DNA from: an uncultured Gammaproteobacteria bacterium
Lineage (GTDB): Bacteria > Patescibacteriota > Patescibacteriia > JAHIZJ01
Assembly (NCBI GenBank): GCA_964371245.1
Contig: CAYJKP010000001.1
Location: 443,042 to 507,041, forward strand
DNA: 64,000 nucleotides
Reading direction: 5' to 3'
Part shown: positions 1 through 33,573 of the stretch, in pieces
Position numbering within the stretch: the stretch's first letter is position 1
Layout: every line of letters starts with the position of its first letter
The notes under the pieces: model-generated
Databases searched by the model: none
The model's input: only the letters and a program-made list of their open reading frames with translations
What the model was told of the DNA's origin: nothing
Translations under genes and position numbers: made by a program

Positions 1-1143
1 GTCGTCTGGCTGAAGACGGTGTGCTTCTGGAAGGACCCGAAGACGCTTGAGCCCATCACGATGACCTTGGCGCTGGAATACCCGCCTGTCGACTACCAGG
101 GGAATCGATACTACCTGTATCAGTATCTCGCGTGCAACAACGCGGCAGGGAGTATCATCCCCATCGTCGACGAAGGCTCGACTGAGGTAACCGTCCAACC
201 GCCAGCTACGGAAGAGAAGAAACCGGAGCCGCCCACCACGACGGATCAAGCGCCGCCTCCTCGCGAGACGTCGCATGAATTCGTTCAGGGGGGCGTCTGG
301 TGGCTCGACTACCGGTATGCCCAGGGCGGGAAGGACCGGAAGGGCAACCTTGACCGGCAGCACTCGTTCCTGGGAGGACTGGAGTGGCTGCCACGGATTT
401 CCGGCTACGACGGCTGGGGTCGCCTGCGCGATCTCTCCACCGTTGTCCGGATTGAACAGGCGTCGCTGGACAAGAATCACGTGTCCGGCGAATACCGGCT
501 CGGCGGTCGGGGCTGGATCCTCGGCGACGAGGCCGGCTCCTGGCGTACGGGCTTTGAAGCCGGCGCCTGGTATCTGGCCAGCCAGCGTGAGTTCGTCAAC
601 TACCAGCAGATCTCGCCCTCGACCATTGAGGCGCGAGAAGACGCGAGGTATTTCGATGGCTACGGCGGCTATGGCCGTATCCTCGGGATCACGCCGAAGC
701 TGGGGTATTATGAGGGTATGTTCAAGCGAGGGACAAACCTCGATCGCGAGATCGCGGGGAGTTTCTCCATTGAACCTCACCCACTATATTTCCGGGCGTC
801 GTACGACGTCCAGTACCGCCGCGGACAGTCACGGCACTTCGACAACCAGACCCTGTCCTTCCCGGCCGACACCATGCAGGTGTTCGAGGGACGGATCGGA
901 TACAAGTTCAACCACTATGTCATTGTCTACGCATCGTATGACTCTTGGTCTTACGACAACCCGAGCTGGTCATTCGACTGGCGCGGCCCCGGGATCGGAA
1001 TTGAGTACCGGATCAACCGTTGGTGGCGTCTGAAGGGGCACTTCAAGTACCTGAATGACGCTACCGATAGAGATTTGGTCAACGGCAAGGTGTACCACAC
1101 GGACCGGCAGTGGGCGGGGATCGGCCTCGACCACAGCTGGTGA
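1..1143 (+). CDS. 5'-truncated high-GC CDS; outer-membrane beta-barrel-like protein. It has alternating hydrophobic/polar strands near the C-terminus and a terminal aromatic W
   Basis: The reading frame is open to window position 1. GC is about 62%. The C-terminus ...IGIEYRINRWW...GIGLDHSW ends in Trp, as in OMP beta-barrels. No family was recognised. Confidence 0.4.
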   Translation, partial: VVWLKTVCFWKDPKTLEPITMTLALEYPPVDYQGNRYYLYQYLACNNAAGSIIPIVDEGSTEVTVQPPATEEKKPEPPTTTDQAPPPRETSHEFVQGGVWWLDYRYAQGGKDRKGNLDRQHSFLGGLEWLPRISGYDGWGRLRDLSTVVRIEQASLDKNHVSGEYRLGGRGWILGDEAGSWRTGFEAGAWYLASQREFVNYQQISPSTIEAREDARYFDGYGGYGRILGITPKLGYYEGMFKRGTNLDREIAGSFSIEPHPLYFRASYDVQYRRGQSRHFDNQTLSFPADTMQVFEGRIGYKFNHYVIVYASYDSWSYDNPSWSFDWRGPGIGIEYRINRWWRLKGHFKYLNDATDRDLVNGKVYHTDRQWAGIGLDHSW

Positions 1144-1160
1144 GCAAGGAGGAACCGAAG

Positions 1161-2042
1161 ATGCGCAGGTGTGTGTTGATGGCACTGCTGGTCCTGGTGG
1201 CCTTTGCGCCGGGATGCAGCAGGGACAAGTGGACGATGACCGCGCCCGGGCTTGCCGAGCCGGAGCAGACAACGCTCGGCTTTTCCGTGACGTGCGCGGA
1301 GGTCGAGGACGGCTGGCCGGTGTTCATCAGCGGGCCGGTCGTGCCTGGATACGAACAGGATCAGAACATCAGAGTGCCGTTTGGCACCTATGCCGACGGC
1401 CACGTCGAGGGGGACTACCTCTGGTGGTCCTGGGGAAACGAGAAGCGAGTCCCCGTCTGGTTCTGGGCCCAGAACCCGGCAGACAGCCGCTACTTCCGGA
1501 TGGTCGACATCTCGGTCGGCGGCACTCCGATTCTGGGGTCAGCGGGTTCCAACGAGTGGGAGACCTGTCGTTCCTTCTCGGTCTACCTCGAGAACGGGGC
1601 GATCGTAGCGTCTCCGGACGGGCCTGATTCCCTGATCAATGCGCAGGTCTGGTACACCGGTACCGGTCTGCCTGACGGGAGGAACTGGCCAGCCGATCCT
1701 AACCAGCCGGTTGAATGGCTGGGGACATGGACCGGCTTCCGCGATCGTGCCCATGCGATGGAGTTCGTCAGCGGGCGATGGACCACCGAGAACGAGAACG
1801 TGATGGTCAAGAAGGGATCGAAGGGCTTCCTGAGGCTTCAGAAGCTCACTGGCGAAGAACTCCGGGCCGGTGTCTACTTCGGTCCGGAAGGCGACTTCGA
1901 TCGGGCGACGCTCCTGAAGTGCATCCATGACCTCGGTGGCGGCTACTGCGCCTTCGAGTACGCGATCACCGGCGCCGGGGGATTCGAAAACCCCAGGGAC
2001 GGCGATGAGCGGTTGTACGGCGTCCATATCGGGGGGCATTAG
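1161..2042 (+). CDS. high-GC lipoprotein (signal peptide plus lipobox LVAFAPGC)
   Basis: AAGGAGG sits 8 nt upstream of the ATG at 1161. The N-terminus is MRRCVLMALLVLVAFAPGCS. The function is unknown. Confidence 0.55.
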   Translation: MRRCVLMALLVLVAFAPGCSRDKWTMTAPGLAEPEQTTLGFSVTCAEVEDGWPVFISGPVVPGYEQDQNIRVPFGTYADGHVEGDYLWWSWGNEKRVPVWFWAQNPADSRYFRMVDISVGGTPILGSAGSNEWETCRSFSVYLENGAIVASPDGPDSLINAQVWYTGTGLPDGRNWPADPNQPVEWLGTWTGFRDRAHAMEFVSGRWTTENENVMVKKGSKGFLRLQKLTGEELRAGVYFGPEGDFDRATLLKCIHDLGGGYCAFEYAITGAGGFENPRDGDERLYGVHIGGH

Positions 2043-2109
2043 TAACAGCCCCCACGATCTGGTCTCGATGTTGCGTTCCAAAGGCATACCAACCCACGGA
2101 GGTAGTGAG

Positions 2110-2670
2110 ATGAAGCGGTTCATGGTTCTGATGGTGCTTCTGGTTGCGATGGTCGCCCTGACCCTGCCCGCGATGGCGCAGGTGAGGGATAGCAAGGTGG
2201 CGCCGCCGCCGGCTGACAGCGCGAAGGCGACGGTCACCCCGGCTCCCGCGGCTCCGGCGCGTCCGACGCTCTCCGACCGCAACCCGGTCGACGGCTGGCT
2301 CGACGCGAACGGCAACTGGCATCTGCGGATCTACGTCAATCTGCCCAAGGCCATCGAGTGGTCCGGACAGACGCCGGTGCCGGGACCGTTTACGGTCGTG
2401 CTCGGCGGCCTGCTCTGTGTGGAACAGGATCCGACAGTCACGGGAGTCAACGGCAGTACGGCGGTCGAATTCGTCATTCCGGCGAATGAGTGCAAGTGCC
2501 AGGAGGAAGGCTGCTTCCTCGCGGCACGCCCGGCTGACGACGGCATCACGGTCTGGCCCTGGACCTGGAATCACCCGAGTCGGGCCAAGAACGACAAGGG
2601 CCAGCAGATCGGCGGTTACCGTCTGATCATGCCGGCCGACGGTATCCTGACCTGGTCGGGCAAGCAGTAA
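2110..2670 (+). CDS. high-GC secreted protein of unknown function
   Basis: GGAGG RBS precedes the start. The signal peptide MKRFMVLMVLLVAMVALTLPAMAQV is followed by a proline/alanine-rich linker. Confidence 0.5.
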   Translation: MKRFMVLMVLLVAMVALTLPAMAQVRDSKVAPPPADSAKATVTPAPAAPARPTLSDRNPVDGWLDANGNWHLRIYVNLPKAIEWSGQTPVPGPFTVVLGGLLCVEQDPTVTGVNGSTAVEFVIPANECKCQEEGCFLAARPADDGITVWPWTWNHPSRAKNDKGQQIGGYRLIMPADGILTWSGKQ

Positions 2671-2698
2671 CAACGCCACAATCCTGTGGCGGCTCTTT

Positions 2699-2745
2699 AG
2701 AGCCTTAGTAGTCTCATCACGAGACGAACGGGCTCTTTTTCTTTG
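2699..2745 (+). terminator. rho-independent terminator (nested hairpin AGAGCC...GGCTCT followed by a T-run) ending the high-GC operon
   Basis: A second small hairpin, GCCACAatccTGTGGC, lies at 2675-2690. The T5CT3 run follows the stem. Confidence 0.5.
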
Positions 2746-2801
2746 TAATAAAAAACTGTTATCCAAATAGTAAGGATAGCAGTTTAGTATATGGAAACAG
2801 A

Positions 2802-4199
2802 CTACTTTAACGTCGGAAGTTTTTGCAAAACGGCCATACCTGCCCAGAAAAGCCACATATTCGCCGTACCCTGCAGAACATTGTCCGAAATGCTCATCAC
2901 CAGAACGGCCGCGATCAGCGATAAGCCGGAATACAGCCAGGCTTTATCGGTCGCTGGAAGTTTGGCTCGTAAATGTTGGAAAATATTGTACACAAGCTTA
3001 CCCAAAATTACTAGGTACGCCAATATGCCCACCAGGCCAAGCTCGATCACCAGGCGAAGATAATCGTTATGGGCCTCGGTGCTCTCGTACATACCCTTCA
3101 CGAATTGCTGGCGGATCACTGGAAACGCGCCAAAGCCGTAGCCCAAATACGGCCGGTCGGCGATTTTGCGGCTCATCTCGGTCCAGACCTTGAAGCGCCA
3201 ATCGATCGAGCTTTCGGCGTCGGAATTCTTTTCCGTCAGACGCTGGATGACGGGATTGCGGGAAAAATCGTAATCAAAATTAGTAAAGATGAAACGATTA
3301 AGCGTTGGACCAAAAAGCAACAGGAACATGGCCAGGCCAAAAAGCGCCACGAGAACTTTCTTATAGTATTTCAGGCCCATGATAAAAACAATAATTCCGA
3401 AACAAATCCAGGCGCCGCGAGTATAGGTCAAGATCAGCAGTCCGATAGTAAGAAGTAGGCCGATGATGAGCCAGCCGTGTTTTTTTATTCCCTCTTGACG
3501 ATGGGATAAAAAATAACCGAATCCGAGAATGAAGATTATGAGCAAATAGGTAGCGAAGGCATTGGGATGAACCAGCGTGCCGTAGACGCGATTATTCAAT
3601 CCGGCAAAGCTTAAACCAGTCTGCGTGAAGAATTGATACAAAGCAACCGTTATGGGTATGATACTGGAAAGCGCGATGGCCTTCAGAAAGCGAGCGGCGC
3701 CTTTTCTGTTGACGACCATGGCGCCGGCCATTAAATAGATAAAGAATATACTGGCGATCCTGACGACTTCCCTGATCGTGGCGGAGAGTGACGGGGTGTA
3801 GAATAATGAGATGACGCTGATAATGACAAAGATAAAAAATGGCCAAAACAGCGGCTGTTTCCAAACGCGCTGTTGACGGCGAATTAGGTAAAATAGGATC
3901 CAGGCGATGACCAGTAAACCGACCACGGACGACAGATTCAGGGAAAATTGTCCGACGTTCAGAAAATCAATCTGGCTGAACGTGTCCATGGCTGGGCGAA
4001 GGACGATAAGCGCGAGAAAGCCCAACTCATAGTCAATCAAAAATATCGGTAATAATACCGTTAAAATCAAAATTTGTAAGATATTTTCGTAGGTTGGATG
4101 CCGCGTAATGGCGTATAAGAGCGGCGCCGCAATCAACACCGTCAGAAAAAGAGTTTGTCCGATTCGTTGAGAGCTATACTTCTGCATTGGGACGGGCAT
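2802..4199 (-). CDS. polytopic membrane protein of the O-antigen ligase / Wzy-like polymerase family
   Basis: More than 10 predicted TM helices. It carries the EAHNDYLRLVIELG motif typical of the O-antigen ligase (Wzy_C) family. Confidence 0.6.
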   Translation of the reverse strand: MPVPMQKYSSQRIGQTLFLTVLIAAPLLYAITRHPTYENILQILILTVLLPIFLIDYELGFLALIVLRPAMDTFSQIDFLNVGQFSLNLSSVVGLLVIAWILFYLIRRQQRVWKQPLFWPFFIFVIISVISLFYTPSLSATIREVVRIASIFFIYLMAGAMVVNRKGAARFLKAIALSSIIPITVALYQFFTQTGLSFAGLNNRVYGTLVHPNAFATYLLIIFILGFGYFLSHRQEGIKKHGWLIIGLLLTIGLLILTYTRGAWICFGIIVFIMGLKYYKKVLVALFGLAMFLLLFGPTLNRFIFTNFDYDFSRNPVIQRLTEKNSDAESSIDWRFKVWTEMSRKIADRPYLGYGFGAFPVIRQQFVKGMYESTEAHNDYLRLVIELGLVGILAYLVILGKLVYNIFQHLRAKLPATDKAWLYSGLSLIAAVLVMSISDNVLQGTANMWLFWAGMAVLQKLPTLK

Positions 4200-5373
4200 G
4201 TTTAATAAAAATTGATTCGTATTTTTGAATAGCTATGTTCCAATCGTACTGCTCGGCAAAGATCCGGGCTTGGCGTTCAACCTTCTGACGCAGATCGGAC
4301 GACTCAAAGAGTCGGTGTATTTTTTCATACATTTCGTGGGAAGAATTTGCCACGAAGATATTCTCGCCGTCAGAGATCGGTAATCCAGCGAGGCTTGTCG
4401 GAGTAGCGACGATTGCCTTGCCGCACGCCATCGCCTCGACAATTTTGTTTTTAAAGCCGGCACCGAGCGTAATTGCAGACACATACACAGCCGAGCGCCA
4501 TAAATAACAGCGAATATCTTTCACATAATCGGTAACGATAATCTGTGGATCGAGCGACTGAAGCTCGAAAATATCGAGGGTCGGATTTTTCCCGACGATA
4601 TACCATTGAACCCGCGGGTGCGCCTGTTTAAGCGACGGCCACACATTTTTATTGAAATCGAGGACGGCCCGGACATTCGGCGGAAAATTCATGGTTCCGG
4701 TGAAGACAATTGTTTCGTTATCAGGCTGCGATTCAGAGGGACGGAAGAATTTTAGATCCACGCCATTGGCAATAACGGATACTTTGGCCGTTGGAGCTAA
4801 TTGCTGGATTGTTTTGCGGTCGACATCTGAGACAACAACGGTTTCCGACAAAGCAGGCAGGACATGTTGTTCAAGAGCTATTGCTTTTTCACGTTCGAAG
4901 CGATAATGAATCTTTCTTAACGGATTTTTCGTGATGGCCCGAAATTGTTCATACCATGAGGAATATGCGTCGATGTACCCAAAGACAACGGGCGTGCGCG
5001 AGATATGTTTCAGGTAGGCGGAAATGAACGGGGAGTGGAAGTAGACGAGATCGACATCAGGGCGACCGTCAAGCGTTTCGACTTCCCAGATCATTTCGGG
5101 CGTGTACAGCTGGTATTGGAACCAGGCCATTGAACGGGATTTCGGCGAGAGATAGTAGAATGGGAGCAGGCGTTTCGGACGGTCAAAAAGCTTCACGCTG
5201 ATGCCGAGGTCGGTGAAACGCTTGATATTCGGAAGATCGTGTTTGTCGCCAAAACAAAGCAGTCGGATCTGATGCCGTTGAGACAAACGCGTCAATAAGT
5301 GATAGGCGATTAAGGCCTGGCCGTCCTTTTCGGGCGGATAGGGGAGGCTATTGGTGACAAATGCTAAACGCAT
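4174..5373 (-). CDS. glycosyltransferase family 1 (GT4-type)
   Basis: The C-terminal motif GAGFKNKIVEAMACGKAIVAT is the EX7E-like GT4 signature. Confidence 0.75.
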   Translation of the reverse strand: MRLAFVTNSLPYPPEKDGQALIAYHLLTRLSQRHQIRLLCFGDKHDLPNIKRFTDLGISVKLFDRPKRLLPFYYLSPKSRSMAWFQYQLYTPEMIWEVETLDGRPDVDLVYFHSPFISAYLKHISRTPVVFGYIDAYSSWYEQFRAITKNPLRKIHYRFEREKAIALEQHVLPALSETVVVSDVDRKTIQQLAPTAKVSVIANGVDLKFFRPSESQPDNETIVFTGTMNFPPNVRAVLDFNKNVWPSLKQAHPRVQWYIVGKNPTLDIFELQSLDPQIIVTDYVKDIRCYLWRSAVYVSAITLGAGFKNKIVEAMACGKAIVATPTSLAGLPISDGENIFVANSSHEMYEKIHRLFESSDLRQKVERQARIFAEQYDWNIAIQKYESIFIKHARPNAEV

Positions 5374-5466
5374 GTATTTATCTTAGCGTAAAATTAGGAA
5401 TCTGAATATGGTACACAATCTTGGCGCTATTGTCAATCGTAGGGCGTTAGGCGGGAACTAGTGTAA

Positions 5467-5495
5467 TTGTCAGCGTCACCGGTGGCGTGTATACT
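5467..5495 (+). promoter_or_regulatory. sigma70-like promoter TTGTCA-N17-TATACT
   Basis: Near-consensus hexamers with a 17-nt spacer. The ATG at 5520 lies about 25 nt downstream. Confidence 0.4.
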
Positions 5496-5519
5496 GAGAA
5501 GCAGTTAGAAAATCATCAA

Positions 5520-6146
5520 ATGTCGCTAGCCTACAAAATATCAGAATACAATAGAAACCGGAAGTGGCGCGCCTTTATCAAAACGTTCACGCTTTCGCCG
5601 AACGTAAAAATACTGGACGTCGGTTTCACTGAACGCGAGTATAGCGAAACCGATAATTATTTGGAAAAACATTATCCGTATCAGCATAATATTACCGCGC
5701 TCGGCGTTGACCAGGCGGAGGAATTCAGGCATCGCTATCCGGCCGTGAACGTCGTAACGTATCGTGGCGGAAAATTTCCTTTTAACGACCATCAGTTCGA
5801 TATTTGTTGGTCAAATGCGGTGATCGAACACGTCGGTAATTCACAGAAACAGCTAGCGTTTTTACAAGAAATACGCCGCGTGGCGAGACATGGCTATCTG
5901 ACCACGCCCAATAAAATGTTTCCGATCGAGGTGCATACGCGCCTGCCGTTGCTGCACTATTTGCCAAAACCGTGGTTCGACGCGATTATCAAAAAAACAA
6001 ATCGAAAATGGGCGGCCGGCGATTATATGCATCTGTTGTCAGAACGCGCGTTGCGAAAATTATTGCAGACGGCGGGGTATACAAACTATACGATAATAAA
6101 AAATCGATTGGCCTTCATTCCGCTGGACTTCGTGATTGCGTTCTAA
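5520..6146 (+). CDS. class I SAM-dependent methyltransferase (type-11-like)
   Basis: Motif I is ILDVGF and the post-I acidic residue is present. The ORF track begins at a GTG at 5487; the ATG at 5520 was preferred. Confidence 0.6.
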   Translation: MSLAYKISEYNRNRKWRAFIKTFTLSPNVKILDVGFTEREYSETDNYLEKHYPYQHNITALGVDQAEEFRHRYPAVNVVTYRGGKFPFNDHQFDICWSNAVIEHVGNSQKQLAFLQEIRRVARHGYLTTPNKMFPIEVHTRLPLLHYLPKPWFDAIIKKTNRKWAAGDYMHLLSERALRKLLQTAGYTNYTIIKNRLAFIPLDFVIAF

Positions 6147-6161
6147 TTAGTATAAAATGGT

Positions 6162-6185
6162 AAGGGGGCTAAGCCCTTTTTTTGA
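6162..6185 (+). terminator. rho-independent terminator (AAGGGGGCTAAGCCCTT followed by T8)
   Basis: A GC stem followed by a poly-T run lies directly after the methyltransferase stop codon. Confidence 0.55.
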
Positions 6186-6241
6186 AAAAAATGCCTGGTC
6201 ACGGATGTGGCCAGGCGAAGGCAGAAGGTTCGAACAGGGGA

Positions 6242-7603
6242 TCAGTTGCCGATCGGTGGGGCGGGTGGAACTCGTGGCTTGCCACCACCTCCGACACAAT
6301 CCGGCGCGTTGTTGTCGACGACGCAGAGAAGCTGAAAGAGCTTCGTCATGTCGTCGTACCAGTCACCGGACTGTTGGCTGAAGTCGTAGCTGCAGCGAGC
6401 CGCGAATTCGGCCGGGACACCACTCTCAACGCACAGGTTGACGGCGTCCCAGTAGGAGTCGTCGACGACGTAGGCGCCGTAATCACGCAGCGCTTGCGCG
6501 ATCTTCATTGCCGGGGAGGTTTTCAGCCCCAGCGAATCGAGGTTCACGTTGGACGGAATGGCGAGCAGGCAGCCCATGCGTACGGCCGGCTTGGCGATAC
6601 CATCCTTGTCGTACTCCCGCTGGTAGTAATGATCGGCACGCGCGGCCGGCCAGCGGAAGCCTTTCTGGGTTTTCGATCCGTATCGGGCCATCCAGATGTC
6701 GATCTTCAGCGCGTGTCGGATCGGTTCCGGACCGAAGAGCTCGCCCCGGCGGATAGAACCACCGAGTGTGGCTAAGCTAGAACCGCCATGGCCGCCGCCG
6801 ATCCCATCTCCATACAGGTCGACGGTGGGCGCTTTCCAGCCGGCATAGGCGGGGCCAGTAGGATCGCAGCGGGCGGTCGGGTTTGCCTGGTAGACGGTGT
6901 TTCCGTCAGCCAAGACAAAGGCCGAGGTTGTGTTGCCGTCGTTCGCCGGGATCAAGGCACCGTCCGGCACGATGATCTTGGCCAGTTCATTGCTGCCGCT
7001 GCACTCTCCTGGCCACTTCCCGTTTCCGTAGAGCGGTCGCTCGCGTCCTTCGAAGAACAGGTACTCCTTGTCGGGTGCGATCCAGAGACAGGGCCTCAGA
7101 CCGGCCGGGACATAGTTTGCCTCGGATCCGATCGGCGCGTTCCAGATGCTGCCGGTCGAAAACGGCCACAGGTACTTGTCCCTGGTCGGAGCATGATCGC
7201 CGCCGCGACCTTGGCACTTCACCGTTTTCAGCTCGCTCGCCCCAAAAGTGATCTTGGCCTTGTGCTGACCGCGTTTCAAGGGCGAGTACGTAACGGTGAG
7301 CAGCCGAGACTCGAACGGCTGGAGAGTGATAACCGACGGATTGACCGAGAAGTGTTTGCTCGACGACTTCACCGAGCTCTCAATCGGGCTGGTCGTCAGG
7401 TTGTAGAGCCTGAGGCTCAGTGAGTTCGAGCGACCAGGCGAAACCGAGCCAAAGTCCAGCTTGAGAGGAGTGACTGGCTGGGTCGACACGATCGCGGGCT
7501 GCTGAACAGTCCGCTGACACGTTGTCGGCGCGCAGCAGGCTCCAGCAAGCACGAGAAAAGCGGCTACGAGTACCCAGATTCCTCTCATTGGATTTACCCC
7601 CAT
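6242..7603 (-). CDS. high-GC (about 60%) secreted protein of unknown function; probable true start at the second ATG, 7588
   Basis: The N-terminus MRGIWVLVAAFLVLAGACC is a signal peptide. GC and codon usage differ sharply from both flanks. Confidence 0.55.
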   Translation of the reverse strand: MGVNPMRGIWVLVAAFLVLAGACCAPTTCQRTVQQPAIVSTQPVTPLKLDFGSVSPGRSNSLSLRLYNLTTSPIESSVKSSSKHFSVNPSVITLQPFESRLLTVTYSPLKRGQHKAKITFGASELKTVKCQGRGGDHAPTRDKYLWPFSTGSIWNAPIGSEANYVPAGLRPCLWIAPDKEYLFFEGRERPLYGNGKWPGECSGSNELAKIIVPDGALIPANDGNTTSAFVLADGNTVYQANPTARCDPTGPAYAGWKAPTVDLYGDGIGGGHGGSSLATLGGSIRRGELFGPEPIRHALKIDIWMARYGSKTQKGFRWPAARADHYYQREYDKDGIAKPAVRMGCLLAIPSNVNLDSLGLKTSPAMKIAQALRDYGAYVVDDSYWDAVNLCVESGVPAEFAARCSYDFSQQSGDWYDDMTKLFQLLCVVDNNAPDCVGGGGKPRVPPAPPIGN

Positions 7604-7644
7604 GGTAAAGGTTATCGAAGAAGCTATCAGCTACCGAACGTATA

Positions 7645-7672
7645 AATATACACTAAAACGATTTTTTGTCAA
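7645..7672 (-). promoter_or_regulatory. minus-strand promoter TTGACA-N16-TATATT driving the high-GC gene
   Basis: Reverse complement of 7645-7672. The AT-rich host-like promoter is divergent from the GT4 promoter. Confidence 0.45.
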
Positions 7673-7691
7673 CCCGCGCTGGTCGCAGGTA

Positions 7692-7720
7692 TTGACAAGA
7701 AGTATAATAATTGCTATACT
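7692..7720 (+). promoter_or_regulatory. promoter TTGACA-N17-TATACT
   Basis: Consensus -35 with a 17-nt spacer, about 30 nt upstream of the ATG at 7751. Confidence 0.5.
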
Positions 7721-7750
7721 GCGCTGTTTTACTAATGGTATGATATCAAT

Positions 7751-8968
7751 ATGAAAATATTGCTGATCAACAAGTTTTACTACCTGAAGGGTGGAGCCGA
7801 ACGGCACTTCTTTGAGCTGAAAGAAATGCTCGAACGACATGGCCATGAAGTTGTCGTTTTTTCTATGCAGGACGAGAAAAATATCCCGTCACCCTATTCG
7901 AAGTATTTCGTTTCAGAAGTTAACTTTGAAAACGTGGCCCTGAATTGGCAGGGGTTACGTACGGCCGGCCGGATGCTGTATTCATTCGAGGCGCGCCGGA
8001 AAATCAGTCAGTTGCTGGATGCTGAAAAACCGGATCTCGTGCACGTGCACAATATTTATCACCAGATTTCGCCTTCGATATTGTCGGCGATAAAAAAGCG
8101 CAATATCCCGATTGTTCAGACGCTCCATGATTATAAATTGCTGTCGCCGAATTATGCCTTGTTTTGCCACGGTAAGATTTGCGAGTGTGCACTTGGCGGT
8201 AAATACTATACGTGCATTCGACACCGATGCATTAAAAACTCATATATCGCCTCAGCTCTATCGGCGCTTGAAATGTACTTTCATAAAACTCTGCAGCTGT
8301 ATGAAAAAAATATCGATGTCTTTATTTGTCCGAGTATATTCATGGCGAGACAGCTGAAGCGCTGGGGGATTCGTGCCAAGAGAATTGAGCAAATATACAA
8401 TTTTGTTTCCGAGACAGCGCCAACGGAAAATGTTATCGGCGACTACTTCGTATACGTCGGGCGACTGTCTGAAGAAAAGGGACTGCCGCTATTGCTCGAG
8501 GCATTTGCGGGTTTGCCGTCAAAATTGAAAATTGTCGGCACCGGGCCACTAGAAAAAGAGCTGAGGCAGAGAGTTCGGACTGAAGGAATGAAAAATGTTG
8601 AGTTTCTTGGTTATCGGGAGGGCGAGGAATTATCAGATATAGTGAGCAAATCCTTGGCGGTTGTCGTGCCGTCGCAATGGTATGAAAATTGCCCGCTGGT
8701 AATATTAGAAGCCTATCAGCATGGCAAGCCGGTTATTGCAACAGAAATCGGAGGCATTCCCGAGCTTGTTCGCCAGGGCCAAACGGGGTATACTTTCAAG
8801 CTCGGCTCGCCAAACGATTTGAGAAAGAAAATTCAACTCATGATAGAAAATACCAGCCGGGTCGATGAAATGGGACAGAACGCGAAGGCGTTTTCGGATC
8901 AGTTCCGTACCGAAAAATATTATCAGAAACTCATTACCATATATGAATCGCTGGTTGGCAAAAAATAG
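7751..8968 (+). CDS. glycosyltransferase family 1 (GT4-type)
   Basis: Carries PSQWYENCPLVILEAYQHGKPVIATEIGGIPE, the GT4 EX7E region. Confidence 0.75.
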   Translation: MKILLINKFYYLKGGAERHFFELKEMLERHGHEVVVFSMQDEKNIPSPYSKYFVSEVNFENVALNWQGLRTAGRMLYSFEARRKISQLLDAEKPDLVHVHNIYHQISPSILSAIKKRNIPIVQTLHDYKLLSPNYALFCHGKICECALGGKYYTCIRHRCIKNSYIASALSALEMYFHKTLQLYEKNIDVFICPSIFMARQLKRWGIRAKRIEQIYNFVSETAPTENVIGDYFVYVGRLSEEKGLPLLLEAFAGLPSKLKIVGTGPLEKELRQRVRTEGMKNVEFLGYREGEELSDIVSKSLAVVVPSQWYENCPLVILEAYQHGKPVIATEIGGIPELVRQGQTGYTFKLGSPNDLRKKIQLMIENTSRVDEMGQNAKAFSDQFRTEKYYQKLITIYESLVGKK

Positions 8969-11000
8969 ACTCGGCTATCATTGCGTGATCGCGCTCATAG
9001 CGGTAACGGCGTTTTTATTTGGTTTGCCAAAAAGCGTTGGCGCGCGGACGCTGGATAATACCTACCCGAGGCTGGCCAACATATTCTATACAACAAAGTT
9101 GACAATGGGCGAAGCGCAGAGCCTGGCGCGTTGGGACGCGATCATCCTAAGCATGGAGAACCAATACACAAACCCTGAGGCGATTCAACTGATGCGCCTG
9201 ATAAACCCTGATATCATCATATTAGCCTATGTGTCATCGCAAGAATTGCCAGACAGCATGTTTGCAATAACTGACAAGAACCATCCTGACTACAAACTGA
9301 CGCATGGTGTCTCAAGTAAATGGTTTTTGCGCGATGCCCAGGGCGGACAAGTAGTTTTTTGGCCGGGCACAAGAATGATGAATGTGACTAATTCGGCGGC
9401 GCGCGTTAACGGATTGCGCTGGAACACCTATCTGCCCGAGTTCGTGCATGAAAACGTCATGTCGACCGACTTATGGGATGGCATCTACTATGACAATATG
9501 TGGAATGATATTTCTTGGCTAAATAACGGCAATCTTGATCTCAACCGCGATGGCCAGAAAGAGAGCGCTGCTGCGCTCGACCGGGCCTGGCGCGATGGAA
9601 TGAGCGCCCTGCTTCGCTACTCGCGGCAATTAGAAGGCGACGAAAAAATAATTGTTGGGGGAGGTGGCGGTCAATATTTTGATTCGATCAACGGGCGGCT
9701 TTTCGAAGGATTTCCGACAAATCTCGATGGCGGCTGGGGCGGATCAATGGAAAAATATCTAGACGCTCAGGATCGAGCCCAGGCGCCGTCGGTAATAATT
9801 ATCAATAGCAGCACAACCACGGGCACGTCGGACGATTATCGACAGTTACGCTATTCCTTGGCGAGTGTATTGCTTGGAAACGGTTTTGCGAGCTTTGACT
9901 TCGGGATGTATCGGCACGCGGATCTCTGGTGGTATGACGAATATGATGTTTCGCTCGGACGGCCGAATGGCTCAGCCTACAATGTTCAAAATGCCTCCGC
10001 TCCGATTTCATCGGCGGGCGTCTGGCGCCGCGATTTCACGAACGGGGTAGTCTTGATAAATTCTACCAATAAGAGCCAGCGGGTGAATTTAGGCGCCGGT
10101 TATGAAAAAATAAAAGGCAAGCAAGCGCCGACGATCAACACTGGTGAAATCGTCAGTTCGGTAACGCTGCCGGCGCGCGACGGACTCATCGTCTACAAGC
10201 GCCAGTTTGAAATAGCCGAAGGTCAGTACACGAACGGGTGGCTGGCCGAAGCCTTCTCCGCCACCGGTCGGAAAGTCCGCCAAGGCTTTTTTACCTATAC
10301 GACCGAATATGCCGGCGGCGTGAATATTATTAAGACTGATTTAACAAACAACGGTACAATTGAGACAGTTGTTGCCTGGAATAATAAAGTTCAAGTTTAC
10401 AACCAGGCCGGCTTTTTGATTCGTGAGTTTTATCCCTACGGAGCTTCGTACAATCGCGGCATCAATCTGGCCGTTGGCGACTTGGATGGCGATAAGAAAA
10501 AGGAGATCGTAACCGGCACTGGTCCCGGCGGCGGTCCGCATGTCAGGATATTTAACGCCCGCGGCGGGTTAGTAAATGTTGGCTTTTTTGCCTACGACAA
10601 AAACTTCCGCGGCGGTGTCCATGTAGCCGTCGGCGATATGAATGGTGACGGCAAGGATGAGATAATCACCGGCGCAGGCTATGGCGGCGGTCCGCATGTC
10701 AGGGTCTTCAGCCGTTTTGGCCGTCCGTTGTCTGGCTTTTTTGCCTACGACAAAAACTTCCGCGGCGGAGTATCGGTCGCCTCGGATGATTTGAATAATG
10801 ATGGAAAAGATGAAATTATTACTGGGGCTGGCCCGGGCGGCGGCCCACATGTCCGAATATTTAATCAGTTTGGCAAAGCGGTGATGCTTGGTTTCTTTGC
10901 TTATAAAGAGAGCTGGCGGTCAGGAATCACGGTGACAACCGCTGATATCAATCGAGACAATAAGCCTGAAATAATAGTCTCGAGCCAAACGCTATATTAA
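8943..11000 (+). CDS. membrane-anchored surface protein. The N-terminal region is a putative glycoside-hydrolase-like domain. The C-terminus holds about 3.5 FG-GAP/VCBS-like 52-aa repeats
   Basis: Repeats read VGDxxGDGKDEIxTGxGxGGGPHVRxF...FFAYDKNFRGG. A TM anchor LGYHCVIALIAVTAFLF is present. An alternative upstream ATG at 8865 would overlap the preceding gene by 103 nt. Confidence 0.55.
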   Translation: MNRWLAKNRLGYHCVIALIAVTAFLFGLPKSVGARTLDNTYPRLANIFYTTKLTMGEAQSLARWDAIILSMENQYTNPEAIQLMRLINPDIIILAYVSSQELPDSMFAITDKNHPDYKLTHGVSSKWFLRDAQGGQVVFWPGTRMMNVTNSAARVNGLRWNTYLPEFVHENVMSTDLWDGIYYDNMWNDISWLNNGNLDLNRDGQKESAAALDRAWRDGMSALLRYSRQLEGDEKIIVGGGGGQYFDSINGRLFEGFPTNLDGGWGGSMEKYLDAQDRAQAPSVIIINSSTTTGTSDDYRQLRYSLASVLLGNGFASFDFGMYRHADLWWYDEYDVSLGRPNGSAYNVQNASAPISSAGVWRRDFTNGVVLINSTNKSQRVNLGAGYEKIKGKQAPTINTGEIVSSVTLPARDGLIVYKRQFEIAEGQYTNGWLAEAFSATGRKVRQGFFTYTTEYAGGVNIIKTDLTNNGTIETVVAWNNKVQVYNQAGFLIREFYPYGASYNRGINLAVGDLDGDKKKEIVTGTGPGGGPHVRIFNARGGLVNVGFFAYDKNFRGGVHVAVGDMNGDGKDEIITGAGYGGGPHVRVFSRFGRPLSGFFAYDKNFRGGVSVASDDLNNDGKDEIITGAGPGGGPHVRIFNQFGKAVMLGFFAYKESWRSGITVTTADINRDNKPEIIVSSQTLY
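10330..10985 (+). repeat. intragenic tandem DNA repeat with a period of about 156-162 nt, in about 3.5 copies
   Basis: A 34-nt block ggcttttttgcctacgacaaaaacttccgcggcgg is perfectly duplicated at 10581 and 10743. ggcggcggtccgcatgtcagg is also repeated. Confidence 0.7.
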
Positions 11001-11001
11001 C

Positions 11002-12423
11002 ATGATGAAAGAAGAATTACACCAAAAGAAGCACTGGTTTCTCCGGGGATGGAAAAGCCTGTCGCTGGCCACGTTTAACATTGTGGCGCCACCGATTGCC
11101 GGTAAATACAATGGACGCTATGATCAGCGTCGCTGGCTTTTGTTTATTGACACGCTTTTTACGCTGATCTTGTTTTTTTTGATCGCGACCGTTCTCTATT
11201 TTCTGACGAGCAAGCAACTCCTGCCCGCGCCCGTGGTAGAAGCAACGTTGTCAACATCCGAAGTAGCGACAAACGGCGGGCGATCGGAAATAGATATTCG
11301 CTTGAGCAATAATGGCACCCTGAACGTCCGGAATATTGAGGTGCGCATGAATTTTCCGGCTGAGTTTGTCTACGAATCCGCCAGCCTTGAACCAAGCCAG
11401 TCCGACAGCCTAATTTGGGAGATACCAGAGCTTAGCGGCGGGCAAGTCAGCCACCTCGTAATAATCGGCCATATCATTGGTGTCCCGAATTCACAACCAA
11501 ATATCAAGGCGCTGGTCCAGTATCTGAGCGGCGATCAATTGATGAGCCAGTCGTTGACTAGGTCATTCACCATTTCGGGTGAGCTTCTATCACTTACGCT
11601 TACGGCGCCCGAAACAGTCCGGAGCGGCCAGGAATACTCATTAACAATACGCGCCGTGAATAATAGCGAACGCGAGTTTTCAAGCGCGTCGATTGAAATA
11701 AAATTGCCTAGAGAGTTTATCCAGACCAGCGTTACGAAACCATTTGAAAAAGGCAGTACGCGGTGGGCAATAAGCAACCTGAAGCCGCAGGCGGAATGGA
11801 GCGTGCGGATCAGCGGACATACAGCGACTGAAAGAGATCATGCAAGCGTGTTTGAAACAACCGCCGGCATACTCGACAACAACCTTGAATACCTGCAGGC
11901 CACCGCAAAAGGGACGGTGAGCATACTCGGCTCAAGCGGTACCACGAATACAAACACCGGAACAGAAACTGCCGCAACCATTTTGAAGTTTGTGGCTGAG
12001 GCGCACTATTACAGCGATTCCGGCGTGCAATTCGGATACGGTCCGCTACCGCCGACGGTCGGTCAAACAACCGGTTATCGCGTTTTTTGGAAGATAAGAA
12101 AGGGCGCGGAATCATACGAAAACCTCACGGTTGAAGCGAGCCTGCCAGAAACTGTGGCTTGGGCTGGAAATGGCAGCGTTTCTTTTGGGCAGCCGCTTAC
12201 ATATGATGAAGAATCGCGCAAAGTAAGCTGGCCCGTTGGCGAGCTAGCAGGAAATCAACCAGACATAACGGCGAGCTTTGAAGTTACGATTTCCCCGACG
12301 GTGAACGATATCGGAAAATTTCTGACACTTTGCAATGCGGTCAGTGTATTGGAGCACGCCGGAGCGACGGTAAAAAATATTTCTACCTATCCGTATATCA
12401 CGACCCAGGTTAGCGACAGTTAG
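11002..12423 (+). CDS. type-II membrane-anchored surface protein with DUF11-like (conserved repeat domain) units
   Basis: One N-terminal TM helix. Repeated modules read EIDIRLSNNGTLNVRNIEVRMNFPAEF and SLTIRAVNNSEREFSSASIEIKLPREF. Confidence 0.5.
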   Translation: MMKEELHQKKHWFLRGWKSLSLATFNIVAPPIAGKYNGRYDQRRWLLFIDTLFTLILFFLIATVLYFLTSKQLLPAPVVEATLSTSEVATNGGRSEIDIRLSNNGTLNVRNIEVRMNFPAEFVYESASLEPSQSDSLIWEIPELSGGQVSHLVIIGHIIGVPNSQPNIKALVQYLSGDQLMSQSLTRSFTISGELLSLTLTAPETVRSGQEYSLTIRAVNNSEREFSSASIEIKLPREFIQTSVTKPFEKGSTRWAISNLKPQAEWSVRISGHTATERDHASVFETTAGILDNNLEYLQATAKGTVSILGSSGTTNTNTGTETAATILKFVAEAHYYSDSGVQFGYGPLPPTVGQTTGYRVFWKIRKGAESYENLTVEASLPETVAWAGNGSVSFGQPLTYDEESRKVSWPVGELAGNQPDITASFEVTISPTVNDIGKFLTLCNAVSVLEHAGATVKNISTYPYITTQVSDS

Positions 12424-18132: not shown

Positions 18133-18819
18133 ATGCCGCTGATCACACTCCAAAACATTAATAAGACATTTTCACCTGATTTGCCAAATCCGGTTACAGC
18201 CCTGAAAGGGGTTCATTTTACGATTGAGCGGGGAGAGTTTATCTCGATCATGGGTCCGTCAGGCTCGGGTAAGAGTACGCTCCTGAATATCTTGGGTTTG
18301 CTCGATGTGCCCGATTCCGGAAGTTATGTTTTGAATAACGTTGATATCAGTAAGGTACCGAAAAACCAATTGCCATTCTTACGCCGAAAAGAAATTGGTT
18401 TTGTTTTTCAAACGTTTAACCTGCTCTCAAGACTGACGGTCGCTCAAAATATACAATTACCCCTTGTTTATAGTCGCTGCCCGAGAAAAAAACAAATTGA
18501 TCGAGTAAACGAGATGCTCAAAACTGTAAAGTTAGAAAATAGAAAAAACTATAAACCAGCACTGCTGTCTGGTGGTGAGAAGCAGCGCGTTGCCATTGCT
18601 CGGGCGTTGGTGAATGACCCCTCGATAATATTAGCCGATGAACCGACGGGTAATCTCGACAGTAAATCGGGTAAAGATATTATGGCGGCCCTGCAATGGC
18701 TAAATCAGCAGGGACGGACAATAATTGTCGTTACCCATGACTCAAATATTGACGCATATGCCCAGCGACATTTTCGTATGTCGGACGGCGAATTAACGGA
18801 AATTACCACAAATAAATGA
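18133..18819 (+). CDS. ABC transporter ATP-binding protein (MacB/LolD-type)
   Basis: Walker [10 protein letters not shown] and signature [15 protein letters not shown] are present. The ATGA overlap with the downstream permease indicates coupled translation. Confidence 0.85.
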
Positions 18820-20042
18820 TTGGAGAAAATATCTCAAATGCCTTTTTGAGTCTGCGCTCAAGCAAGCTTCGATCATTTTTAACGATGCTCGGGATTATTA
18901 TTGGTGTAGCGCAAATCATCGTATTAATCGGACTCGGGCAGGGGATAAAGAAGGATATCACCAGCGAAATCACGCAGCTGGGCTCAAACGTACTTATTGT
19001 CTTGTCTGGTAAAGTGCAGACCAGCCAAGGCGGTTTTAATCCGGGTGCTTCGGTCGGAGCATCAACACTGACAGAAAATGATTTTACAGATTTAAAAAAA
19101 CTACCCGATATTATCGACGCTACCAGAATCGGATTGCTCTCCGCGGTGCCGACAGCTGACGGAAAACAGGCGGATGGCGCCATGATTATGGCGGCTGATC
19201 CAAGTTTTTTTCAATATACAAATACGTACCAAATTGTTTCTGGTCGATTTTTCAACGAGGCCGAGAACCAACAGAGCAAAAAGGTCATCGTGATCGGGAA
19301 CTACACGCGTGAACTGCTTTTTCCTGGCGTCGATCCAACAGCTGTAATCGGTCGGACCGTGTCGATAAGCAAAGAAAACTTTACGATCGTCGGCGTCTTT
19401 GAAATGGCCCAACAATCGTCATTTTTTGGAAATGGCAGCACCCAAATCGGCGTGGTAATTGTTCCATATTCCACAGCAAAAAGCGTAAACCCAAACACAC
19501 AGATATTCCGCATCGGTCTGAAAGCGAGTGACAATGCTGATGTGAAGGTAGTGGCACAAAATGTTCAAAATACATTGAATGAGCTCCATGGCGCAAATGA
19601 TACGACTGTCTTTACGCAGGAAGACCTATTAAAAGTGGTTGATAATATCCTGGGCTTGATTACGAAAGCAATCGTCGGATTGGCTTCGATATCCCTGCTG
19701 GTTGGTGGAATTGGTATCATGAATATTATGCTGGTGGCGGTTATGGAACGAACGCGAGAGATCGGCTTGCGAAAAGCGGTCGGTGCAACCGGTGGGAATA
19801 TCCTGCTGCAGTTTTTAACTGAGTCAGTTGTTCTCTCACTGTTCGGCGGCGCGATCGGCGTTGCCATCGCAACGGTCGCGAGCGTTATTGTGAAAAAGCA
19901 GTTTGATTTAACGATCATTGTTGACTCGCAATCGATTATTATCGCCATGGGATTTGCGCTCGCCGTTGGTGTCATCTTCGGTTTAGCCCCAGCTGCAAAA
20001 GCCGCTCTAAAAAATCCGATTGAAGCACTCCGGTACGAATAA
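18816..20042 (+). CDS. ABC transporter permease, FtsX/MacB family with a large extracytoplasmic domain
   Basis: It has the N-terminal TM, large loop and three C-terminal TM helices of the MacB/FtsX architecture. Confidence 0.75.
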   Translation: MIGENISNAFLSLRSSKLRSFLTMLGIIIGVAQIIVLIGLGQGIKKDITSEITQLGSNVLIVLSGKVQTSQGGFNPGASVGASTLTENDFTDLKKLPDIIDATRIGLLSAVPTADGKQADGAMIMAADPSFFQYTNTYQIVSGRFFNEAENQQSKKVIVIGNYTRELLFPGVDPTAVIGRTVSISKENFTIVGVFEMAQQSSFFGNGSTQIGVVIVPYSTAKSVNPNTQIFRIGLKASDNADVKVVAQNVQNTLNELHGANDTTVFTQEDLLKVVDNILGLITKAIVGLASISLLVGGIGIMNIMLVAVMERTREIGLRKAVGATGGNILLQFLTESVVLSLFGGAIGVAIATVASVIVKKQFDLTIIVDSQSIIIAMGFALAVGVIFGLAPAAKAALKNPIEALRYE

Positions 20043-26168: not shown

Positions 26169-27590
26169 CTAGGGGTTTAAGGCCCGACTACTCGGATGGA
26201 TGCGCACGGCGAAATCAGTGGTGGTCACAATGTTATCCCACTTATAGCCAAGCTGATTGAATACGTCAGCCGAGGCAATGCGTTTTCTTTTGCCGTTTGA
26301 AACTACAAAAACCGCGTGCGATTCGGGCGAAGTGATCAGCGTGCCGTCTTTGAATCGGAGCGGCTCGCCCGGCTGATACTGCTGGATTTCAGAATCGTCA
26401 ACCCTGATCAAGTTCGGTTTGGGGAAATTAGACAGGAGTATTTCTCTTGAAACAATGCCGTGGCGCGTGCCGTTTTTAACATAGGATACCGCGCCAGTTT
26501 TTTTTGATTGCAGCAGGACGCCAGTTGGATAGACGCTGTTCATGGAGATGGAATAGCCCGTCGGATAGCTTTTCAGATCTCCGGATTCGACTGGAATAAC
26601 TTCTTCCGGATTATATCCAATTTTTCGGAAAACCGATTCTGATTCGATGAGATGTTTCTCATTAAACGCGATTAAATACGTTTTTTCATCCGGTCCTTGC
26701 AGCAGACTATATTCTGGGAACTTGATTGGCGGCCCGTCTTCATAGGCATCAATATCGTTCTGAGAGACCGTCAGGATGTTCCTTGGGTTATAGTTGGCCA
26801 GGAATGCAGATTTGGACCAAAAGGCCCGCTTACGCCCGTTTTTAATCAAATAGACGGCTGGCTGACCGGCTACCTGGAGCAAGCTGCCGTCCGGATAGAC
26901 TTTTCCGAACCAGTCCGTCCATTTCTTCCAGACCAGCGAACTGCCACCCCAGCGCAGATCGCCACCGCCGTATTTTCCGACCCAGGGCGTATACGTATAA
27001 AGCGCTGCGGTAGCGGCGTTCTCTGGCGTAACGGCGATTCCATCCAATGTGTTTTTCGTGATAAACGGACCCCAGCCGCTGATCGTTCGACCGAGTTTTC
27101 GTATCCGCGTGATATACCCTTTGGGATTTCCATAGCTGTCTAGCTCCGCATTGAGAAATATTTTTGCCGCCCACATCACTTGAATAGAAAAACCTTTATA
27201 TGTACTTGAACAGCCGGTGCCGTCCGGGCAGCCGAAGCCGGCCGCGTAATCAATTTGGTTTTGAGTCGGAGTTGAATCAGAAATTAATCCTTGCTCGACT
27301 TCAAGGCGCACGAGCAGATACTTCGGATTAATTTTATACATCTGGGCAACATCGTAAATAATTTGAGCGGCCGACTTATTTACCCCAAAGACGGAAGTGG
27401 CATAGGTGTCGAGAACGCCAGTTTTTGACTCGAGGAACTTTTGAATCCTGTCTTTTGACATTGACTGGTAATTCAAGAGGTCCTCATCGGACAAGAGGTT
27501 ATTTGGATGACAAACGGCAGCCAGTAACGGAGCTGGCATAATAAAGTTTAGGATGACGAGAGAAACAATGAATCGTTTTATGAAGGTCAT
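26169..27590 (-). CDS. secreted protein with four ~55-aa tandem repeats, inserted within the AmmeMemoRadiSam operon
   Basis: An N-terminal signal peptide is present. Repeats follow the pattern xYLIxNGxKRxIxSxxVFxxxGYxxxxIxxV. It is separated from both flanking genes by 1-4 nt. Confidence 0.5.
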   Translation of the reverse strand: MTFIKRFIVSLVILNFIMPAPLLAAVCHPNNLLSDEDLLNYQSMSKDRIQKFLESKTGVLDTYATSVFGVNKSAAQIIYDVAQMYKINPKYLLVRLEVEQGLISDSTPTQNQIDYAAGFGCPDGTGCSSTYKGFSIQVMWAAKIFLNAELDSYGNPKGYITRIRKLGRTISGWGPFITKNTLDGIAVTPENAATAALYTYTPWVGKYGGGDLRWGGSSLVWKKWTDWFGKVYPDGSLLQVAGQPAVYLIKNGRKRAFWSKSAFLANYNPRNILTVSQNDIDAYEDGPPIKFPEYSLLQGPDEKTYLIAFNEKHLIESESVFRKIGYNPEEVIPVESGDLKSYPTGYSISMNSVYPTGVLLQSKKTGAVSYVKNGTRHGIVSREILLSNFPKPNLIRVDDSEIQQYQPGEPLRFKDGTLITSPESHAVFVVSNGKRKRIASADVFNQLGYKWDNIVTTTDFAVRIHPSSRALNP

Positions 27591-33564: not shown

Positions 33565-33573
33565 AACAATATG

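Follow-up and report, generated by a model that had tools for sequence, protein, structure and literature searches.

A conserved GC-rich cassette of Patescibacteria with a predicted wall-tethered barrel beside a Wzy glycan locus

A GC-rich cassette of three genes, here called A, B and C, opens a 64,000-nucleotide stretch of an uncultured Patescibacteria genome (GenBank assembly GCA_964371245.1, contig CAYJKP010000001.1, positions 443,042 to 507,041 of the forward strand; hereafter the window). We found that this clade of Patescibacteria (the candidate phyla radiation, CPR) has possessed the cassette for a long time and passed it on vertically. Its high GC content and strong Shine-Dalgarno (SD) sequences are a conserved, native and gene-specific feature and not the footprint of a foreign origin. 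The cassette is predicted to provide a wall-tethered barrel of outer-membrane type tied to a Wzy locus, in a phylum where such a protein is unexpected. Overall, we read A-B-C as an inherited CPR envelope operon for a wall-tethered barrel complex that serves a Wzy-dependent surface glycan and carries a selected GC and SD signature, and we put the probability of this reading at about 0.6.

The age of the cassette is seen in its surroundings. The gene order PCP-A-B-C-Wzy(-)-GT4(-)-X(-)-GT4-GHL15-FG-GAP-DUF11, where PCP is a polysaccharide co-polymerase gene, GT4 a glycosyltransferase gene and (-) the opposite strand, is kept in relatives at 79%, 57%, 46%, 28% and 27% identity. A still more distant locus, L024, retains the order PCP-A-B...Wzy-X, and the divergent locus L023 retains the PCP gene close 5' of A, with two genes in between. 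PCP domains were recognized by Pfam (Wzz and GNVR) in four loci. The Wzy gene is convergent 3' of the cassette in the six syntenic loci that reach past C, and in L024. Among 5.8 billion proteins, A has four close homologues, of which the named ones come from 'Patescibacteria group bacterium' metagenome-assembled genomes (MAGs). The picture for B is the same, with only Patescibacteria or unnamed MAGs. An exhaustive profile search of 1.84 billion cluster representatives with the C-terminal domain of A returned 31 proteins, nearly all of 450-640 amino acids (aa) and of the same architecture, and the few named ones belong to Patescibacteria or 'bacterium' MAGs. Neither the 5.8e9- nor the 1.84e9-sequence search found homologues of A and B outside Patescibacteria and unclassified MAGs.

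The part of the block that falls within the window has the following features.

1..1143, + strand: 3' part of gene A (residues 235-614 of 614), open in frame 1 from the first base to the stop at 1143; it comprises the last part of the middle domain (nt 1-189), a Pro-rich linker (nt ~190-270) and the barrel domain (nt 271-1140), followed by the stop codon
271..1140, + strand: predicted beta-barrel domain of A (residues 325-614); by DSSP ~15 long antiparallel strand segments, probably 14-16 strands
1146..1152, + strand: SD of gene B, AAGGAGG, 8 nt 5' of the ATG
1161..2042, + strand: gene B, 293 aa, probable lipoprotein, family-specific; hydrophobic leader and G18-C19 invariant in 8 homologues
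2098..2103, + strand: SD of gene C, GGAGGT, 6 nt 5' of the ATG
2110..2670, + strand: gene C, 186 aa, small secreted protein; signal peptide ...PAMA↓QV and a Pro/Ala-rich N-terminal stretch
2674..2691, no strand assigned: hairpin CGCCACA-ATCC-TGTGGCG between the convergent genes C and Wzy

Predicted barrel protein A and its partners B and C

Gene A is cut by the window and not by the assembly, base 1 of the window lying 702 nt into this 614-aa gene. Its 5' part, which codes for a signal peptide, an N-terminal beta-sandwich domain and a LysM domain, lies upstream, and the full-length gene is visible at locus L011 (3858-5702) and in locus L025. The complete high-GC block measures ~3.45 kb (L011 ~3800-7290), so that the window holds the distal two-thirds of the A-B-C operon. 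An AlphaFold2 model of A built from the 31-sequence alignment reached a mean pLDDT of 88.1; it replaced a model from the four close homologues alone, which was unusable (pLDDT 40.7). The signal peptide, by inspection of the full-length sequence, is MKQLTVLLFVCALVFSANALA↓Q, and almost every one of the 31 family members starts with a hydrophobic leader. In the model it is followed by an Ig-like beta-sandwich (residues 30-106), LysM (~119-156) and a beta-rich middle domain (169-297) that is conserved, with C279 and N281 near-invariant. From there, a Pro-rich linker (303-319), which is disordered, leads to ~15 long antiparallel strand segments (332-613). Closure of the barrel and the number of strands rest on prediction, and the DSSP count is ambiguous at 14-16. 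The LysM domain is recovered by the family profile (E 1.7e-11, LytE LysM), and Pfam LysM is found in 14 of the 31 members.

We compared the barrel domain with known structures. The top 50 Foldseek matches in PDB are all outer-membrane barrels, each with probability 1.00. They include FadL (E 2.8e-8), OmpG (target TM-score 0.57), general porins and autotransporter barrels, at sequence identities of 8-13%. In a viral structure library, the top matches were mostly annotated porin and autotransporter barrels. The strands are dyad-amphipathic across the family, with a hydrophobic fraction of 0.5-0.7 on one face and 0.13-0.36 on the other in most strands. The last strand of A ends in ...GIGLDHSW, and 23 of the 31 members end with F, W or Y, often as G-L-x-Y-x-[FW]. 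Sub-threshold matches of A are exclusively to outer-membrane barrel families (OMP_b-brl, 21.2 bits versus a cut-off of 28.7; OmpA_membrane, LptD, Porin_4 and Toluene_X), and the A profile matches the OpcA C-terminus with an E-value of 0.021. The first-pass annotation of this DNA had called the first product an outer membrane protein-like beta-barrel. The model confidence, the Foldseek matches and the aromatic ends support that call at the level of fold, and we consider it highly probable that the C-terminal domain, as modelled, adopts the fold of an outer-membrane protein barrel.

Instead of an aromatic residue, a subgroup of eight family members (P0018, P0019, P0022, P0027 and P0028 among them; locus L020) has at its end a few basic residues that follow ...G-[LIV]-V-[YF]-x-P, as in ...KLGLVYAPATKTHRR. 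The C-terminal signal of this subgroup may thus be a variant one. No second barrel candidate was found among the window open reading frames (ORFs) of at least 150 aa scanned for a terminal aromatic residue, and no outer-membrane biogenesis genes or further candidate barrels were seen in the 64-kb window or in the ~20-kb flanks read.

The product of gene B is probably a lipoprotein, its invariant G-C pair being read as a lipobox. Earlier labels of a lipoprotein for B and a secreted protein for C stand, by inspection and by the conserved leader and G-C motif. Neither product could be assigned to a known family: B has no known domain and no sequence match in Pfam, NCBIfam, PHROGs or PDB, and the same four collections gave no family match for C. 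Matches of B to an insecticidal toxin and to LpqN (E ~0.2) were rejected as weak, and so was the NCBIfam match hit_Bd0108 for C (E 0.024), which covers the signal peptide alone. Gene C diverges fast, with 71% identity to the closest species. The hairpin behind it could serve both strands as a terminator. A terminator scan flagged this site and no other, on the minus strand of L011 and with a weak T-run. In the promoter and terminator scan of the cassette, counts were at or below the shuffled expectation. A phage origin of the cassette was rejected as well, since A, B and C have no PHROG matches and the viral fold matches are themselves annotated as porins.

GC content and Shine-Dalgarno sequences of the cassette

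The first ~2.7 kb had been described as GC-rich, and this holds: bases 1-2745 have a GC content of 62.1%, against 46.1% for the rest of the window. In 2745-bp sliding windows beyond 7.7 kb the background is 0.461 ± 0.020 with a maximum of 0.510, which puts the block about eight standard deviations out. GC content falls from 0.60 to 0.36 across 2650-2750, right behind the stop codon of gene C. GC content at third codon positions (GC3) exceeds 0.7 in only 4 of ~58 window ORFs, namely A, B, C and gene X of the neighbouring glycan locus (6242-7603). The codon shift is strongest in two-fold codons ending in C or G, for which the following fractions were obtained.

TTC: island 0.77, rest of the window 0.32
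TAC: island 0.74, rest of the window 0.32
AAC: island 0.80, rest of the window 0.37
AAG: island 0.84, rest of the window 0.31
CAG: island 0.89, rest of the window 0.47

GC content is raised in all codon classes, 4-fold codons included (Val 0.81 versus 0.53, Pro 0.78 versus 0.62). In amino-acid composition, G, P, W and D are up in the island and I, K and L are down.

The three genes are co-directional, all on the + strand, and their strong SDs do stand out from an SD-poor window, where an SD match of at least 5 nt was found in 1 of ~52 other genes. GGAGG-type SDs precede A, B and C in every related locus, L023 included, and are found on none of the neighbours; for the B orthologue the strong SD is seen in L013, L014, L017, L020, L021 and L024. 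The maintenance of canonical SDs on A-B-C in an essentially SD-less genome implies that the anti-SD is functional although very few genes make use of it. GC3 in six genomes of 46-52% GC amounts to 0.67-0.89 for A, B and C and 0.69-0.75 for the gene at the X position, versus 0.43-0.62 for flanking genes. We then compared 4-fold sites at identical amino acids with the relatives at 57%, 28% and 27% identity (L014, L020 and L021). These sites differ at a frequency of 0.6-0.8 in A and B and 0.5-0.7 in C. Hence, 4-fold sites are saturated in the distant comparisons, and the high GC3 must be actively maintained in each lineage. That a few genes hold a GC3 of 0.7-0.9 and strong SDs in SD-poor genomes of ~46-52% GC across saturated divergence points to gene-specific control of composition.

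As the cause of this signature we prefer expression-linked selection, i.e. strong or special translation of abundant envelope proteins, although we would give it slightly less than an even chance. An SD may be required on GC-rich, structured mRNAs where the rest of the genome initiates translation without it. General secretion was rejected as the cause of the GC excess, because other exported products (GHL15/FG-GAP, DUF11, BNR lipoprotein, 26169-27590) have normal GC3.

The GC3 excess might also come from GC-biased gene conversion at a recombination hotspot of often-exchanged surface genes, and not from selection on translation. Increased GC content in all codon classes, 4-fold sites included, is in line with such a process, and so is the faster protein evolution of A, B, C and X compared with the flanking enzymes. 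Between the window and its closest relative (L013/L018), protein identity is 82% for A, 87% for B, 71% for C and 88% for X, while at similar synonymous divergence Wzy is 99%, GT4 97% and the second glycosyltransferase, GT4b, 90% identical. Lower protein identity at similar synonymous divergence indicates faster evolution of the cassette proteins, as is typical of proteins exposed at the surface. However, the GC boundaries fall at the ends of coding sequences, and gene conversion leaves the conserved strong SDs unexplained. We therefore regard it as improbable, with a small but appreciable chance of being correct.

The signature could, finally, be a legacy of ancient transfer into the ancestor of the CPR clade from a GC-rich diderm, or of retention from a GC-rich or diderm ancestor, the composition of these genes being kept by selection as the rest of the genome drifted towards AT. 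The barrel fold and the C-terminal signal are of diderm type, locus L024, in a genome of 62% GC, is GC-rich throughout its neighbourhood, and homologues of X with 45-50% identity occur in Cyanobacteria, Chloroflexota and Gemmatimonadota. In addition, CPR are placed within Terrabacteria, whose diderm members have wall-tethered porins (10.1101/2021.05.31.446380). However, donor-side homologues of A, B and C were not detected in our searches, and origin alone is insufficient, as an ongoing force is still required for a GC3 of 0.7-0.9. On balance we find this scenario rather unlikely. Locus L024 (GCA_040960375.1, contig JBFOMN010008276.1), where all genes including DprA and TopA have a GC3 of 0.73-0.81, could bear on whether the clade ancestor was GC-rich.

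The glycan locus and a possible envelope role

The cassette is part of a surface polysaccharide locus rich in glycosyltransferases, to which the following genes of the window belong.

2802..4187, - strand: Wzy_C (O-antigen polymerase/ligase-like) membrane protein, Pfam Wzy_C 1.1e-21, convergent with the cassette
4174..5373, - strand: GT4 glycosyltransferase of the same polysaccharide locus (context gene)
6242..7603, - strand: gene X, the 'second island', 453 aa, secreted or lipid-anchored; leader ...LAGACC, true start possibly the Met at 7588

The Wzy gene has a normal GC content (0.476) and no SD, and is the same neighbour in every related locus. The genes 5' of the block, coding for a Wzz-like PCP, a GT2 glycosyltransferase and an AMP/thymidine-phosphorylase-like product, are of normal GC content too. 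The invariable adjacency of the cassette and the PCP gene suggests a coupling to the Wzy glycan pathway. A would be exported by Sec and tethered to peptidoglycan via LysM, and the Pro-rich linker would let its barrel reach the outermost envelope layer. Together with the lipoprotein B and the secreted C it would form a distal conduit or anchor for the Wzy-pathway glycan. We propose this role in glycan export or anchoring tentatively, at odds clearly below even.

Composite translocons made of a PCP, an outer-membrane polysaccharide export (OPX) protein and a beta-barrel are known from Wzx/Wzy pathways (EpsX-EpsY, WzpX-WzaX), together with Wzi and GfcABCD (PMC9601211; PMC9603273; PMC8592465). Like them, A-B-C combines a barrel gene with a lipoprotein and a small secreted partner beside PCP and Wzy genes. 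The set also resembles gfcA-D, which code for a small secreted protein, a lipoprotein, a periplasmic protein and a barrel. However, none of the three products shows a Poly_export/SLBB, GfcC, YjbH or Wzi signature, and the described composite translocons are all found in diderms.

A parallel in domain order is offered by the OmpM/SlpA porins of diderm Terrabacteria and by the Omp-alpha/Omp-beta toga system of Thermotoga (10.1101/2021.05.31.446380; PMC10628300; PMC10160955). On one chain and in the same order, OmpM/SlpA and A each have a module for cell-wall binding at the N terminus, an extended linker and, at the C terminus, a porin-type barrel, and their lineages belong to the same superclade, Terrabacteria. 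Yet A has LysM instead of SLH (no SLH match was found), a proline-rich linker and not a coiled coil, and extra Ig-like and middle domains. Its best matches are the 14-stranded FadL and OmpG, and no sequence homology to OmpM/SlpA was detected. For the phylum that hosts A, loss of OmpM, of SLH/CsaB and of the outer membrane has been reported (10.1101/2021.05.31.446380; PMC10160955). The OmpA family shares with A a membrane barrel combined with a peptidoglycan-binding domain, and A has weak sub-threshold matches to OmpA_membrane and OMP_b-brl. In OmpA, however, the domain order is reversed, the OmpA C-terminal domain takes the place of LysM, and the barrel has 8 strands versus ~14-16 in A. FadL, OmpG and porins are the best Foldseek neighbours of A, which has the terminal aromatic residue and the dyad-amphipathic strands, but the identity is 8-13% and a fold match gives no function. 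Membership of A in the OmpM, OmpA, OPX-translocon or Gfc families is not supported, and an OmpA_C signature was not found either.

Several observations weigh against an inherited envelope operon serving a Wzy-dependent glycan. B and its 7 homologues have no OPX (Poly_export/SLBB) signature and no Pfam match at E<=0.1. The best matches of the A barrel are the 14-stranded FadL and OmpG and not the 16-18-stranded polysaccharide porins of the AlgE/PgaA type; AlgE, PgaA, BcsC and Wzi are absent from its top 50 Foldseek matches, at a DSSP strand count that is itself ambiguous. No Wzx flippase was identified in the stretch examined. For A, no Pfam outer-membrane family scores above threshold, the barrel being a prediction, and 8 of the 31 family members have no terminal aromatic residue. 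CPR are reported to lack BamA/Omp85 and outer-membrane biogenesis genes (10.1101/2021.05.31.446380; PMC10160955; PMC12102498). As for the signature, the GC3 excess is weak in L023 (0.63 versus 0.51-0.64) with the SD present, and the moderately expressed housekeeping genes GreA, Frr, MreB and ClpB of the window show neither raised GC3 nor an SD.

Where the predicted barrel would reside is a question raised by the current view of these cells. CPR are described as monoderms in which porins, SLH tethers and outer-membrane machinery have been lost (10.1101/2021.05.31.446380; PMC10160955; PMC12102498; 10.64898/2026.06.29.735159). The barrel of A could lie in an unrecognized outer layer (lipid or toga-like), in the membrane of a host cell, or in another assembly that buries its hydrophobic face. 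The first option would mean that the clade is not simply monoderm and has an outer lipid or protein layer, outer-membrane-like or toga-like, with a LysM-tethered porin-type barrel and without canonical markers of didermy. We think this unlikely, though the chance is a real one. An outer layer of this kind would make A-B-C a relic or reinvention of the Terrabacterial wall-tethered porin system coupled to the Wzy pathway and bearing the conserved GC3 and SD signature, a view that we likewise take to be a minority prospect.

Alternatively, an episymbiont might deliver A to a diderm host cell, where the barrel would enter the outer membrane and act as an attachment device or a conduit for nutrients, with LysM gripping peptidoglycan. 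The Patescibacteria brought into culture live as obligate episymbionts on monoderm and diderm hosts (10.1101/2024.03.08.584096), CPR are thought to have no outer membrane of their own (PMC12102498), and the predicted barrel is hydrophobic on one face. However, the tight and ancient linkage to PCP and Wzy points to the glycan pathway of the producer itself, and no secretion-system genes adjoin the cassette. Nor is a route known for inserting a monomeric 14-16-strand barrel from outside. Taken together, delivery to a host is very unlikely.

Scenarios of envelope evolution treat CPR as a clade that lost its outer membrane, porins and tethers (10.1101/2021.05.31.446380; PMC10160955; 10.64898/2026.06.29.735159). 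For these, the clade-restricted A family, with its wall-binding domain and confidently predicted porin-type barrel, offers a testable handle on the outermost layer of uncultured CPR cells.

Gene X of the glycan locus consists of an ASH/HYDIN-type Ig domain and a C-terminal domain of ~310 aa, and has a GC3 of 0.74. The C-terminal domain has no Pfam model and contains the invariant motifs GDGxxGGHGGS and DYGAYVxDD. Its relatives at ~45-50% identity form more than 522 clusters from Cyanobacteria, Dehalococcoidia and Gemmatimonadaceae, some of them as fusions with CBM6 or dockerin. It is plausible that this domain binds or cleaves glycans. The domain also matches phrog_17388 'minor tail protein' (2.2e-17); a SycD match of X (E 0.029) was rejected as weak.

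Directly upstream of the glycan locus (L025 3878-7531; L013, L014 and L021) lie genes for R15P isomerase, form III RuBisCO and AMP phosphorylase, as well as a Cache-PAS histidine kinase with two response regulators, an arrangement kept across the clade. The three enzymes constitute the CPR/archaeal nucleoside-salvage trio, which often precedes the cassette run. Elsewhere in the window, two MacB/FtsX-type ABC permeases (MacB_PCD and FtsX; 18133-20042 and 60523-61812, both + strand) were found, one with an adjacent ATPase. This permease family includes LolCDE, yet many monoderms have it as well, and its presence therefore says nothing about the type of envelope.

Inheritance and assembly context of the block

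The first-pass annotation proposed that the block is either a horizontal acquisition from a high-GC diderm or a chimeric join at a contig edge. The deviation is that of a textbook foreign island. GC content exceeds the genome background by 16 points and changes sharply at gene ends, codon usage is typical of a GC-rich genome, the predicted fold is typical of diderms, and SD use is unlike that of host genes. The other marks of a genomic island are not seen. No integrase or transposase gene was found next to the cassette, and there is no tRNA near the block, window tRNAs being located only at 63.2-63.4 kb. A search for att-like flanking direct repeats gave chance-level repeats only. Patchy presence and donor-lineage homologues of A and B are not observed either, as the cassette occupies the same site in all related loci found.

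Recent acquisition is refuted by the combined evidence: A and B have no detectable homologues beyond Patescibacteria and unclassified MAGs, the block shows no marks of mobility, and synteny, GC3 excess and SD use are unchanged in relatives down to ~27% identity, with synonymous sites saturated in the distant comparisons. We consider what chance it retains to be slim. The argument that two high-GC islands in one window favour horizontal acquisition fails as well, because X (6242-7603) has the same conserved pattern as A-B-C. Deviant GC content, codon usage and SDs thus mimic a foreign island and yet constitute a signature that is native and conserved. Tools that call islands by composition or decontaminate bins would remove such genes from CPR genomes in error.

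A chimeric join has next to no chance: its one support is the abrupt change in GC content near the window start, and more than 20 independent assemblies have the same junction between the GC-rich block and the low-GC Wzy gene, which excludes a chimera. The block does not lie at a contig edge, as had been assumed, but in mid-contig. Over window positions 1-11143 (11,143 bases), identity is 100% both to an interior part (~464-486 kb) of a 918,384-bp contig at 48x coverage and to a 67-kb contig from another sample. In exact-protein look-ups, A was found on 21 contigs and B and C on 10-13 contigs from various samples and assemblers, 8 of these contigs being longer than 200 kb. The junctions on both sides of the cassette recur, with unchanged neighbours, in the more than 20 contigs, which come from independent samples and different pipelines; strain contigs differ by just 0-3 bases. 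Orthologous junctions are present in other species. We are thus very confident that the block is native, conserved and non-chimeric.

Minor features were noted further along the window. Two ORFs have, by eye, MreB-like N-termini (46743-47795 and 53039-54046, both - strand); the former is followed by MreC/MreD-like ORFs, and the latter has a slightly raised GC content (0.53). The opposite compositional outlier is a 231-aa ORF at 32869-33564 (- strand), with a GC content of 0.33 and a GC3 of 0.28; the 1-kb bin 33001-34000 has a GC content of 0.368.

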